64,000 nucleotides of DNA from an uncultured Nitrososphaerales archaeon (GCA_963695855.1 CAVOHZ010000003.1:128001-192000), one strand, 5' to 3'. Positions 4,295 through 12,726 are shown, counted from the stretch's first letter. The notes: generated from the letters alone by a model not told the origin. Translations and numbers: made by a program.

Positions 4295-5752
4295 ATGACA
4301 AATTATGATACAATTATGAAGCTGTCGCTTGAGAGAGGTTTTTACTTTCCAAGTTCAGAAATTTATTCTGACGCGCCAGCAGGATTTTGGGATTACGGAC
4401 CAAATGGAGTAAATTTAAAAAATAAATTCATAGAATTATGGAGAAGGGAATTGATTAGAAGGGACGGTATGGTGGAAATTGATGGCTCTCAAATTATGAG
4501 TAAGAGTGTATTCAAGGCTTCTGGACATATTGATAATTTTTCAGATCCAGTAATAAAATGCATAAAATCTAACCACACCCTACGAGCAGACAAGTTTATA
4601 AACGAAAAAATCGATTTAAATATTCCTGAAGGATTAAAAAATGAAGAGATTGACACGATAATATTAAAAAATCAATTATTGTGTCCCAGTTGTAAATCAA
4701 AATTTAAAAGTACAGAAAGATTTAACATGATGTTTAAAGTAGAAATAGGTCCAAATAAAGACGAAGCATATCTTAGACCAGAAACATGTCAGACCATTTT
4801 TGTTGATTTTTCACGAATATTCAAAGTTATGCGAGGCAGATTCCCATTTGCAGTTGGACAAATAGGAAAGAGTTTTAGAAATGAAATAGCACCAAGACAA
4901 AGTCTTTTAAGACTAAGAGAGTTTTATCAAGCTGAAATAGAGATATTTTGTAATCCAAATAAATTAAATAGTTTATCAAAATTTGAAGAAATTAAAGACA
5001 CAAATTTAAGAATTCAAATAGATTCAGAAATTAATGAAATAACCACAGAAGAGGCTTGGAAGAAAAAAATAATACCTAATAAATTAATTGGATATTATCT
5101 ATCCCTGTTAGCCCTATTTTATGAAAAAACAGGAATAGATATGAAAAAAACACGATTCAGAAAGTTAGCTGAAGATGAAAAAGCATTTTATGCAAATATT
5201 GCTTTTGATTTTGAGGTTGGAACAAGTTTGGGTTGGTTAGAACTGGTTGCATGTAACTATCGTTCGGATTATGATTTGAAACAACATTCATCATTGAGTA
5301 AGGAGAAGATGGAGGTTATAGACCCTGACACTCAGGAAAAAATTCTTCCTCATGTATTTGAATTATCATTAGGAATAGATCGAAGTGTATATACAATTTT
5401 GGAACATTCTTTTTTTCAAGATACAGATAATAAAAGAACGGTATTAAGATTAAATCCTCACCTAGCTCCAATTAGTATTGGAATTCTTCCTTTGATGAGG
5501 AATGAAGATATAGAAAATATATCAAGACGTATTCACCATAATTTGAGAAGAAATTACGACACCTTTTATGATGCTTCTGGTTCGATAGGAAGAAGATATA
5601 GAAGATTAGAAGAAATAGGTGTACCATATGCAATTACTATTGATCATACTAGTAAAACTGACAATACTGTCACAATAAGGTATAGGGACACAATGGAACA
5701 AACAAGAATCAAAATAGATGAAATTAATGATTTTTTCGCTAAATCAATTTAA
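4295..5752 (+). CDS. glyS: glycine--tRNA ligase (alpha2 type)
   Basis: YLRPETCQ, SFRNEIAPR, LRLREFYQAE, SIGRRYRR motifs. Confidence 0.95.
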   Translation: MTNYDTIMKLSLERGFYFPSSEIYSDAPAGFWDYGPNGVNLKNKFIELWRRELIRRDGMVEIDGSQIMSKSVFKASGHIDNFSDPVIKCIKSNHTLRADKFINEKIDLNIPEGLKNEEIDTIILKNQLLCPSCKSKFKSTERFNMMFKVEIGPNKDEAYLRPETCQTIFVDFSRIFKVMRGRFPFAVGQIGKSFRNEIAPRQSLLRLREFYQAEIEIFCNPNKLNSLSKFEEIKDTNLRIQIDSEINEITTEEAWKKKIIPNKLIGYYLSLLALFYEKTGIDMKKTRFRKLAEDEKAFYANIAFDFEVGTSLGWLELVACNYRSDYDLKQHSSLSKEKMEVIDPDTQEKILPHVFELSLGIDRSVYTILEHSFFQDTDNKRTVLRLNPHLAPISIGILPLMRNEDIENISRRIHHNLRRNYDTFYDASGSIGRRYRRLEEIGVPYAITIDHTSKTDNTVTIRYRDTMEQTRIKIDEINDFFAKSI

Positions 5753-9527: not shown

Positions 9528-10577
9528 GTGTTGTCTAGAACCAATTTTGAAGATCATACAATCTGTACTCTTGGATCTCACTGTTCCTTACAGGTTTTAA
9601 AAGGTGCCAAAGATGAAGGTTTTAAAACTTTATTAATATGTGAGAAAAAGAGGGAAAATCTATATCGAAGATTCTCATTCATTGACGATTTTATTATAGT
9701 TGATAAATTCAGAGATATATTGAAAAAAACGGTCTTTCAGAAATTACCCAATGAAAAAGTATACATGATACCTCATGGAACGCTAATTTCTAATTTTCAG
9801 TTAGACGAGATAGAAAATTTAAACGTGCCATTTTTTGGAAATAAATATATTCTCAGATGGGAGGCAGATAGAGAATTAAAACAAAAAATGATGCAGCAAG
9901 CAAAACTATCTACTCCAAAAGCAATTAAAAACAAAAAGATGATAAAAAAACTTTCTATCGTGAAATTGCATGGAGCGGCAGGAGGTAAAGGATATTTTCT
10001 TGCGTGGAATGAAAGAAGTTTTTATGAGGGATGTAATAAATTAATTAAACAAAAAGTAATTAAAAGTGAGGATGATCTTTATATTCAAGAATATATTTTA
10101 GGTATTCCTGTTTATTTACAATTTTTTTATTCTCCTATAAAAAAAAATACAGAACTCATTGGCATTGATAGAAGATATGAATCAGACATTGATGGCATAG
10201 GACGTCTTCCAGCACATGTTCAACAAAATATTAATTTGAACCCATCATACAACGTGATAGGAAATTTTCCTCTTGTATTAAGGGAATCACTCTTACAAGA
10301 ACTCTTTATAATGGCAGATAGATTTGTCGATGTAACCAAAAAATTCGTATATCCAGGCATTCCAGGACCTTTCTGTCTCGAAGGTGTTTATGATAGTGAG
10401 GGTAATTTCACGGTATTTGAGTTTTCAGCTAGAATTGTTGCAGGAACTAATCTCTTTATCAATGGATCCCCGTACTCTGATCTATTATTCGAAGAGCCAA
10501 TGAGCATGGGGAGAAGAATTGCAAGAGAACTAAAAATAGCTATTAAGACAAATATGCTCTCAAAACTGGTTACATAG
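9528..10577 (+). CDS. purP: formate--phosphoribosylaminoimidazolecarboxamide ligase family (PurP)
   Basis: [50 protein letters not shown]. Confidence 0.9.
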
Positions 10578-10597
10578 TTTAATATTAGATTTATTTA

Positions 10598-11080
10598 TTA
10601 ACCTCCTGTCATTTTAGTAAATTTATTAATCTTCTGCGTTGTAGATATATAATCCAAATTAGCCAGTGCCACTTCAGCAGATTTTCTTACTTCGCAGCTT
10701 TTATCATTCAATGCACGGATTAGTGTTTCTCTGGCTTCCTCTGAACCTATTACTCCTAAGGCTACCGCTGCTTCATGTCGAACGAAAAAACTTGGGTCTT
10801 TATCTACTGCCTCACATAACGGTTTTATCCCGCTGGTAAACCCTAGCTGACCTAGGGAATAAGCTGCTTCATGTCGCACCAATTCATCTAAATCATTTTT
10901 CAAAACAATGCTTATGGGTATTATAGATTCTTCACCGGCAATATCTGCAAATATGCAGACAGCTCTAGTTCTAATGATATGATCAGGATGAAAAAGTAAA
11001 TTCCTAAAAAAATCTCTATTATTGATGTTAAATTCGCTTTCCATCTTACCAAGCAATAAAAGTCTCTCTTTACTATCCAT
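10598..11080 (-). CDS. HEAT/PBS-lyase repeat protein with two His-Glu motifs (half-DOHH-like)
   Basis: LVRHEAAYSLGQLG and FVRHEAAVALGVIG repeats. Confidence 0.85.
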   Translation of the reverse strand: MDSKERLLLLGKMESEFNINNRDFFRNLLFHPDHIIRTRAVCIFADIAGEESIIPISIVLKNDLDELVRHEAAYSLGQLGFTSGIKPLCEAVDKDPSFFVRHEAAVALGVIGSEEARETLIRALNDKSCEVRKSAEVALANLDYISTTQKINKFTKMTGG

Positions 11081-11172: not shown

Positions 11173-11634
11173 ATGCGTGTAAGATATTGGCATCTTAACA
11201 TTCAAGAAACACTTAAGTGCAATTACCCACTGGAGAAAATAAATCACTGGGAAATAAAGTGTCTTTGTGGAGATTATGAACATTTTGGAGTATTTTGGTT
11301 TAAGTATGGTACACCTTTTGATAAAGAACCGATTCATGGTATTTGTTTTTATTACAACGAAATAGAAGAAAAAATTGTAAAAGAATTAACAGACTATCTT
11401 TCAAGATTATTTGGTGGAAAGATATTATTTAGACAAACTAGAGTTTTTCTTCAAGGATCCAAAGTAGTTTTTGATCCTAAATCAATTGGAAAATTAGCTA
11501 ATGATTTGAGTCTAAAATTTAATGTACCCGTAGAAATAACTATTGAATTAGAAAAAATATCAGATGAAGAAATAACTGAAAACAATTTTAACTTTCCTGC
11601 TAAAAAGGTCTTACCTATTGTAGGTACGGATTAA
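11173..11634 (+). CDS. hypothetical protein
   Basis: 153-aa ORF filling the intergenic space, typical composition. Confidence 0.7.
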   Translation: MRVRYWHLNIQETLKCNYPLEKINHWEIKCLCGDYEHFGVFWFKYGTPFDKEPIHGICFYYNEIEEKIVKELTDYLSRLFGGKILFRQTRVFLQGSKVVFDPKSIGKLANDLSLKFNVPVEITIELEKISDEEITENNFNFPAKKVLPIVGTD

Positions 11635-12222: not shown

Positions 12223-12726
12223 ATGGATGACAAAATAAATAATGAATATTTAGATATGCTTAATAGAGAAAAAATACCTGAATTTAATGAATTTCGATTA
12301 AAGAATCTGACATTTAGACCCAATTTATCTGGTCAAGATTTTTCCCGAAAGGACCTTACTAACGCTTATTTGAATGGAGCAATATGTGTTAAAACTAATT
12401 TCAATAATTGCATGCTTGGAAAAACTAATTTTGTTCAAGCTGATTTAAATGAATCAAATTTTGAATCTGCAGATTTAACTGAAACATTGTTCATGTACGC
12501 AGAAATGAAAGATTGTCGATTGACAAATTGCAATATGAATAAGACAAATTTTATGTGGGCAAATCTCCAGAATTCGGATTTACGTGGGAGTAAACTTGAT
12601 GGAACGATATTTATAGAGGCGTATCTACAGAATTCGAATTTAGATAACTTAAAAATGGAAAAAGCATTTATAAAATTTGCTAAACTTGGTAACGGAGAAG
12701 ATAGAGTTAATAAACTATCAAAGTAG
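12223..12726 (+). CDS. pentapeptide repeat protein
   Basis: Tandem A(D/N)Lxx and xxFxx pentamers. Confidence 0.9.
   Translation: MDDKINNEYLDMLNREKIPEFNEFRLKNLTFRPNLSGQDFSRKDLTNAYLNGAICVKTNFNNCMLGKTNFVQADLNESNFESADLTETLFMYAEMKDCRLTNCNMNKTNFMWANLQNSDLRGSKLDGTIFIEAYLQNSNLDNLKMEKAFIKFAKLGNGEDRVNKLSK

Follow-up and report, generated by a model that had tools for sequence, protein, structure and literature searches.

Introduction

Hypusine is made in eukaryotes by two enzymes, deoxyhypusine synthase acting first and deoxyhypusine hydroxylase (DOHH) second; the synthase also occurs in archaea. Eukaryotic DOHH (yeast Lia1; EC 1.14.99.29; human structures PDB 4D4Z and 4D50) is a single chain of about 290–320 amino acids, with eight HEAT repeats of the PBS type arranged in two lobes. 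A 2021 review describes the enzyme as a symmetrical dyad, built of four plus four repeats, in which four His-Glu sites are strictly conserved. The same repeat type and a solenoid fold occur in generic PBS-lyase HEAT-like proteins (PF03130/PF13646; CpcE/CpcF, NblB, YibA, MTH187 and the alphaReps), which are continuous solenoids, unlike the two-lobe DOHH.

Prunetti 2016, Bassani 2018 and the 2021 review all report that no DOHH orthologue had been found in archaea, in agreement with the initial annotation of the locus described here, which held that no archaeal DOHH is established. The portions available of the 2026 reviews examined likewise name no archaeal DOHH, and among the matches listed for literature from 2022 on deoxyhypusine hydroxylase and archaea no title or abstract presents an archaeal enzyme. 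Our literature search, whose coverage extended to a minority of subscription journals, returned no report of DOHH in Thaumarchaeota or Asgard archaea, none of hypusine in Thaumarchaeota and nothing relevant on an archaeal deoxyhypusine monooxygenase. The DOHH name has already reached some orthologues of the present protein through automatic JGI annotation: among the best 120 of 1599 relatives, 13 are labelled 'deoxyhypusine monooxygenase' and most of the others 'HEAT repeat protein'.

Here we describe P0001, an archaeal protein of 160 amino acids that has the PBS-type HEAT repeats common to DOHH and to the generic PBS-lyase HEAT-like proteins, together with the solenoid fold of the latter. Unlike DOHH, it comprises one lobe rather than two, and unlike the eukaryotic enzyme it has no link to a known hypusine phenotype.

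Results

A half-size HEAT protein with two His-Glu motifs

The gene for P0001, a half-size DOHH-like HEAT protein, occupies positions 10598–11080 on the minus strand of the window, by which we mean the whole 64,000-nucleotide stretch of DNA that was analysed. The open reading frame (ORF) list and the translation place an ATG at 11080 and the stop codon at 10598–10600, so that the interval, stop codon included, encodes 160 amino acids. This is the sole Pfam HEAT_2 gene of the source genome (3.55 Mb, 99.9% complete), and its product matches generic repeats only in Pfam, HEAT_2 at 61.5 bits and HEAT_PBS at 50.2 bits, both over the cut-offs.

The initial annotation named four sequence elements in this gene, and each is present letter for letter in the 160-residue ORF. 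The helix RTRAV of the first repeat (residues 37–41; 10958–10972, minus strand) aligns with the R-x-R-A-L/M-F helix of the eukaryotic DOHH halves. The first His-Glu motif, LVRHEAAYSLGQLG (residues 67–80; 10841–10882, minus strand), and the second, FVRHEAAVALGVIG (residues 99–112; 10745–10786, minus strand), align with the first and second HE sites, respectively, of each DOHH lobe; H70/E71 and H102/E103 are both encoded by CAT GAA, at 10868–10873 and 10772–10777 of the minus strand. The helix EVRKSAEVALA of the fourth repeat (residues 130–140; 10661–10693, minus strand) aligns with the V-x-E/Q-S/T-C-E-V-A-L helix of the DOHH lobes. The protein ends in a conserved C-terminal tail, FTKMTGG (residues 154–160; 10601–10621, minus strand), in which F154, T158, G159 and G160 are invariant. 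An AF2 model of P0001 is all-helical, with four HEAT repeats (pLDDT 97.2, pTM 0.91).

In RNA libraries that two studies prepared from soil and rhizosphere, short contigs of close relatives (95–99% identity) span positions 10511–10933, 10577–10852 and 10672–10864, and the 5′ third of the gene is without cover by these contigs. Because RNA libraries can hold DNA, this is a weak hint of transcription at most.

Kinship of P0001 to the lobes of DOHH

We compared P0001 with proteins of solved structure by sequence and by fold. The best natural match by sequence in the PDB is human DOHH, 4D4Z: a search with P0001 alone gave 70.1 bits (E 1.6e-18), and one with the family profile gave 99.8 bits (E 1.1e-27). 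The remaining natural HEAT proteins are well behind (YibA 33, Rpn2 ~31, MTH187 25, CpcE 23). The highest raw scores against solved structures are those of designed alphaRep proteins, because alphaReps are consensus HEAT repeats. Foldseek, which the initial annotation had suggested for a comparison with DOHH, returned 4d4z_A with both the best query TM-score (0.74) and the lowest rmsd (4.7 Å) among near-full-length matches. BLASTP against cucumber DOHH gave in-register alignments to the C lobe (41% over 81 aa) and to the N lobe (36% over 103 aa); thus, P0001 aligns to one lobe at a time, and is not a single chain of eight repeats and two lobes.

P0001 resembles a lobe of DOHH in having four repeats with HE in the second and third, and the spacing from HE to HE is 32 residues in P0001 and 33 in human DOHH. 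Flanking positions are also held in common: repeat 1 has R-x-R-A, L-G-Q follows the first HE, and repeat 4 has E-x-x-x-S/T-x-x-V-A-L. The inter-lobe linker of DOHH is absent from P0001, and the F-x-K/R-x-T-G-G tail that is invariant in the aligned orthologues of P0001 is lacking in eukaryotic DOHHs. We aligned P0122, a natural double form described below, to 23 eukaryotic DOHHs and three further double forms. Apart from a few Gly, Ala, Leu and Val residues, no side chains other than those of the four HE pairs were invariant in this alignment, and each of the four profile sites is occupied by HE in human DOHH. We take the His-Glu residues at these sites to be the iron ligands of human DOHH (six ligand residues). 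Judged by these alignments, P0001 is homologous to the DOHH lobes, and the DOHH-like nature that was first proposed for it can be made more precise, as that of a true homologue of one lobe, in register along all four repeats. The metal-ligand positions of DOHH are intact in P0001, as a predicted iron site.

Identity as a phycobilin lyase was considered and rejected, with NCBIfam scores of 38.6 bits for CpcE (cut-off 330), 31.9 for NblB (cut-off 300) and 19.1 for CpcF (cut-off 220). A search of protein representatives with the family profile gave 68,416 matches at E ≤ 0.001, most of them giant multi-repeat HEAT proteins, which dominate because repeat scores sum; as for distant relatives of the half-size protein, this search brought out only P0122, P0184 and P0194. 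In the ESM Atlas, only generic HEAT clusters were found beyond the P0001 family's own clusters.

Conservation of the His-Glu motifs

The initial annotation had staked its reading in advance on the His-Glu motifs being kept in orthologues, and they are kept throughout: HE is present in repeats two and three of all 121 family members (P0001–P0121). A pattern match scored 119 of them, and the other two, P0026 and P0086, were scored by eye on account of a neighbouring F or I substitution. We also counted the two residues after the V-R of each PBS-type repeat in a comparison set, namely the 147 large HEAT proteins with the highest scores against the family profile. HE occupies the equivalent site in only 6 of 1752 such repeats, and the generic PBS-lyase HEAT-like proteins, unlike P0001, are thus without paired His-Glu motifs. 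The His-Glu pattern of the family is more than chance.

Across 25 aligned orthologues (alignment A1), the invariant positions include H31, R37-T38-R39, C42, H70-E71, H102-E103, E130, V131, S134, A138, Y144, F154, T158, G159 and G160. A word-index search for relatives of 88–280 aa returned 1599, the best 120 of which are all 63–95% identical to P0001 and come, where the source is named, from Nitrososphaera or Nitrososphaeraceae; orthologues range in length from 148 to 215 aa. Among contigs, the best 80 of at least 598 pattern matches are all Nitrososphaeraceae-like, the best match being 93% identical. These results demonstrate strong purifying conservation of the P0001 family.

Distribution among archaea

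We surveyed a class sample of 201 genomes and a Thermoproteota sample of 401 genomes. Strong full-length matches (E ≤ 1e-40) were found in 130 of the 136 other genomes of the ammonia-oxidiser order, a count that includes one unpublished genome (G132). The six exceptions are a genome with a divergent paralogue only (G196), three with weak matches only (G064, G104 and G188), one with a fragment bearing a stop codon (G183) and one with pieces beside masked runs (G193). The P0001-type gene is thus a core gene of ammonia-oxidising archaea and near-universal among them. Outside that order, strong matches within the class sample were confined to families f8 (1/1) and f6 (4/9), with none in f7, f9, f10, f11 or f12–14. 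At E ≤ 1e-20 in the phylum sample, the only further gene-bearing families were f23 (9/17) and f42 (2/15), and the gene was not found in any other family of that sample.

Haem-copper oxidase subunit I was detected in all 38 genomes tested from f4, f6, f8, f23 and f42, the gene-bearing families outside the ammonia oxidisers, with or without the gene. The gene is confined to lineages that carry a terminal oxidase, a distribution that fits an O2-dependent enzyme without being diagnostic of one. As a predictor of the gene the oxidase was rejected: it is present in all tested members of f23 and f42 and does not discriminate within them, and oxidase-bearing relatives are often without the gene, which only 9 of 17 and 2 of 15 genomes of these families possess.

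The control genome of Sulfolobus acidocaldarius contained no HEAT_2 gene, despite matches for deoxyhypusine synthase, aIF5A, MqnA/D and oxidase. This species has been reported to contain hypusine, and archaeal hypusine therefore cannot depend on the P0001 family in general.

Tails, subfamilies and unusual relatives

The half-size proteins fall into groups that differ at their C termini. The tail [K/R]-F-[A/T]-[K/R]-x-[T/I/P]-G-G ends the proteins of the ammonia oxidisers, f8, f23 and f42, and so reaches into further classes of Thermoproteota; a second group (f6, f4 and P0314–P0316) keeps both HE motifs and ends in APRP or MPHP; and a third (P0318, P0320, P0321 and P0324) ends in KPKIRL. None of these three tail types occurs in eukaryotic DOHHs. 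Lineage-specific, strongly conserved basic C-terminal tails are thus a feature of half-size His-Glu HEAT proteins (loci L095–L118).

Two further relatives were observed. A second half-size protein, divergent and ~166 aa long, occurs in some Nitrososphaeraceae; it has two HE motifs and the ending GEAIL (L110, G171:C1:150900-152000; L111, G196:C86:4200-5300) and is absent from the source genome. P0381 (392 aa), known from one Logan-derived sequence, joins a His-Glu HEAT unit to a C-terminal borderline match to adenylate/guanylate cyclase (E 1.4e-4; 22.0 bits against a cut-off of 21.9), a weak match that may keep a sensor reading alive for some members of the family.

Natural double forms and the history of the duplication

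Four natural double forms consist of two units with four HE motifs in total: P0122 (363 aa), P0313 (285 aa), P0323 (280 aa) and P0345 (252 aa). We placed their units in a tree of 78 units and 140 columns (IQ-TREE quick search, LG+C20, SH-aLRT support only). The two units of each of P0313, P0323 and P0345 are sisters (SH-aLRT 99, 96 and 99, respectively), and both units of P0122 lie inside a Nitrosopumilaceae-type clade (SH-aLRT 99). Since the units of one fusion are each other's nearest relatives, at least four independent tandem duplications have taken place outside eukaryotes. Recurrent fusion of two copies is expected if the working unit is a pair of lobes, and the functional unit is therefore probably two lobes.

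An AF2 model of P0122, built from alignment A2, has a pLDDT of 80.7, with low values confined to the first 44 residues and to the linker at 194–217. Against human DOHH it gave a Foldseek TM-score of 0.82 normalised to the target, all other chains scoring 0.51 or less, and VIA-align superposed it on 4d4z_B with Z 31.0 and an rmsd of 2.9 Å over 266 of 290 residues, the next match having Z 17.4 over 153 residues. This likeness is partly by construction, because eukaryotic DOHHs are part of the alignment and 4D4Z was already public when the method was trained; we regard the model as a consistency check for a DOHH-type two-lobe fold and not as independent proof.

The same tree sets every His-Glu unit apart from five HEAT proteins without His-Glu (SH-aLRT 88). 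It also gathers the N and C lobes of the eukaryotic enzymes into a single group of 34 rows (SH-aLRT 84), with all 39 prokaryotic units outside it. This topology is consistent with single-lobe proteins that predate the eukaryotic duplication. An alternative in which the prokaryotic units group with the C lobes and the N lobes fall outside has an lnL difference of 10.98 and is not rejected by the AU test (p-AU 0.203). The proposal that P0001 represents a pre-duplication form thus agrees with the maximum-likelihood (ML) tree, and the AU test leaves the alternative standing beside it.

Gene neighbourhood and the hypusine pathway

The source genome encodes an aIF5A of 130 aa with the loop SKPGKHGSAK on contig C10, the P0001 gene being on C3. 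This aIF5A was found with TIGR00037; PF01287 misses it, as it also misses that of the Haloferax control. The same contig C10 carries two side-by-side divergent deoxyhypusine synthase genes (G000:C10:531743-533744; loci L001 and L002), and, of 59 further ammonia oxidisers in the sample, 58 have at least two synthase copies. Synthase copy number was rejected as a correlate of the P0001-type gene, since many families without the gene also have at least two copies.

Proximity of the P0001-type gene to a deoxyhypusine synthase gene was observed in f23. In genome G375 of this family the two genes are divergent and 75 bp apart, with a second synthase gene next to the first, and in genus g66 a synthase gene lies 5.0–7.3 kb from the P0001-type gene in 7 of 8 gene-bearing genomes, the eighth being too fragmented. 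Because these genomes are kin, such proximity counts as about one or two events rather than eight. Among the ammonia oxidisers we saw no conserved functional neighbour and no linkage to deoxyhypusine synthase or aIF5A; in genomes G074, G008, G120 and G116, the P0001-type gene is 35 kb or more from these genes. Nitrosopumilaceae have Rad50/Mre11 and a redoxin as neighbours; in the window, the genes nearby are of the PurP-like, response-regulator and pentapeptide kinds. An mqnD gene adjoins the P0001-type gene neither in the window nor in the other loci examined.

Several other features of the surroundings were recorded. A putative gene, a 153-aa ORF at 11173–11634 on the plus strand, is divergent from the P0001 gene and has no Pfam match at E ≤ 0.01. 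Just beyond the P0001-type gene, a pentapeptide-repeat protein is encoded both in the window (12223–12726, plus strand; recognised by eye) and at 4636–5124 of locus L127 in genome G120 (recognised by Pfam), and this shared neighbour suggests local synteny within Nitrososphaeraceae. At 4575–5379 of locus L116 (G223:C1:1211485-1219976; f23), the divergent neighbour encodes a small protein that resembles ThiS/Urm1, and CGI-121 (KEOPS) comes next. CGI-121 adjoins the gene in L113 too, and the HEAT protein itself ends in Gly-Gly; the association may be chance.

We also looked for the futalosine pathway. MqnA/D is found in none of the 17 f23 genomes, nine of which have the P0001-type gene, and is present in every genome of f24 (23/23), f32 (15/15) and f36 (12/12), none of which has it. 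The gene does not track the futalosine pathway in Thermoproteota, and a role in quinone metabolism is therefore not general.

Discussion

In the explanation that we prefer, P0001 would be a single lobe of a DOHH-type enzyme, contributing four HEAT repeats and two His-Glu motifs. A pair of identical chains would meet head to head, and their four His-Glu motifs would form one two-iron centre. O2 would bind at this centre, which would convert the deoxyhypusine side chain on aIF5A to hypusine by hydroxylation, deoxyhypusine synthase having presumably placed deoxyhypusine beforehand on the conserved lysine of aIF5A. That P0001 is a homodimeric two-iron oxygenase is a prediction in which we have good confidence; deoxyhypusine on aIF5A is its putative substrate, a point on which our confidence is evenly balanced. 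To the explanation as a whole, a homodimeric half-size DOHH acting on aIF5A deoxyhypusine with dimerisation, iron, O2 and substrate all predicted, we give roughly half of our credence.

It is unlikely, in our estimation, that P0001 is a homodimeric DOHH-type two-iron HEAT oxygenase acting on some other substrate, either a protein side chain or a small molecule of, for example, quinone or lipid metabolism. The fold and ligands fit an oxygenase without fixing its substrate, the gene in ammonia oxidisers is unlinked to those for deoxyhypusine synthase and aIF5A, and the existence of several half-size subfamilies, with a second paralogue in some Nitrososphaeraceae, suggests diversified roles; the family is also absent from archaea such as Sulfolobus acidocaldarius for which hypusine is reported. 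Against a different substrate, however, the futalosine genes and the P0001-type gene do not co-occur (0/17 in f23, 50/50 in f24, f32 and f36), the only functional neighbourhood found is that of deoxyhypusine synthase, and DOHH positions other than the ligands (R-x-R-A, L-G-Q and the E-x-x-x-S/T helix) are kept as well.

We consider it improbable that P0001 is a non-catalytic HEAT protein, a metal sensor or adaptor that binds a partner through its concave face and tail and in which the metal at the His-Glu sites is structural or signalling. Pfam and NCBIfam recognise only generic HEAT or PBS-lyase repeats, the invariant tail resembles a docking peptide, and in P0381 the unit is joined to a weak cyclase match, an arrangement that is frequent in sensors. 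A protein of this kind would nevertheless have retained all six iron-ligand residues of human DOHH, together with their spacing; tandem duplication has repeatedly rebuilt a two-lobe enzyme architecture; and identity of at least 63% across the order is unusual for a plain adaptor. Transfer of a eukaryotic DOHH gene to archaea with later cutting to a single, non-ancestral lobe survives the AU test as a tree with the prokaryotic units beside the eukaryotic C halves (p 0.203), yet it is very unlikely given the ML grouping of the eukaryotic N and C halves (SH-aLRT 84) apart from the 39 prokaryotic units, the diversity of half-size forms, with at least three tail types and a spread over several archaeal classes, and the about equal similarity of P0001 to both DOHH halves (41% and 36%).

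Returning to the half-size hydroxylase, we offer a wider picture tentatively, as possible but doubtful when all of its parts are taken together. Ammonia oxidisers and a few O2-respiring archaeal lineages would make true hypusine with a homodimeric half-size hydroxylase; this form would stem from a single-lobe ancestor that became the eukaryotic enzyme by tandem duplication, an event that recurred several times in prokaryotes; and the invariant tail, as a new element, might close the dimer or dock on aIF5A.

Even if P0001 proves active, hypusine formation in Sulfolobus or in anaerobic archaea would be unexplained by this family, the gene being lacking there. P0001 is a testable candidate for the enzyme that the hypusine papers say archaea lack, and its family supplies a specific gene that can be studied in ammonia oxidisers, organisms that are abundant worldwide and can be cultured. 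If the protein is active, a HEAT-repeat two-iron site can form from two identical chains, and an evolutionary route from half to dimer to fusion exists for eukaryotic DOHH. Activity would also mean that O2-dependent tuning of translation factor 5A is tied to the aerobic lifestyle of these archaea.
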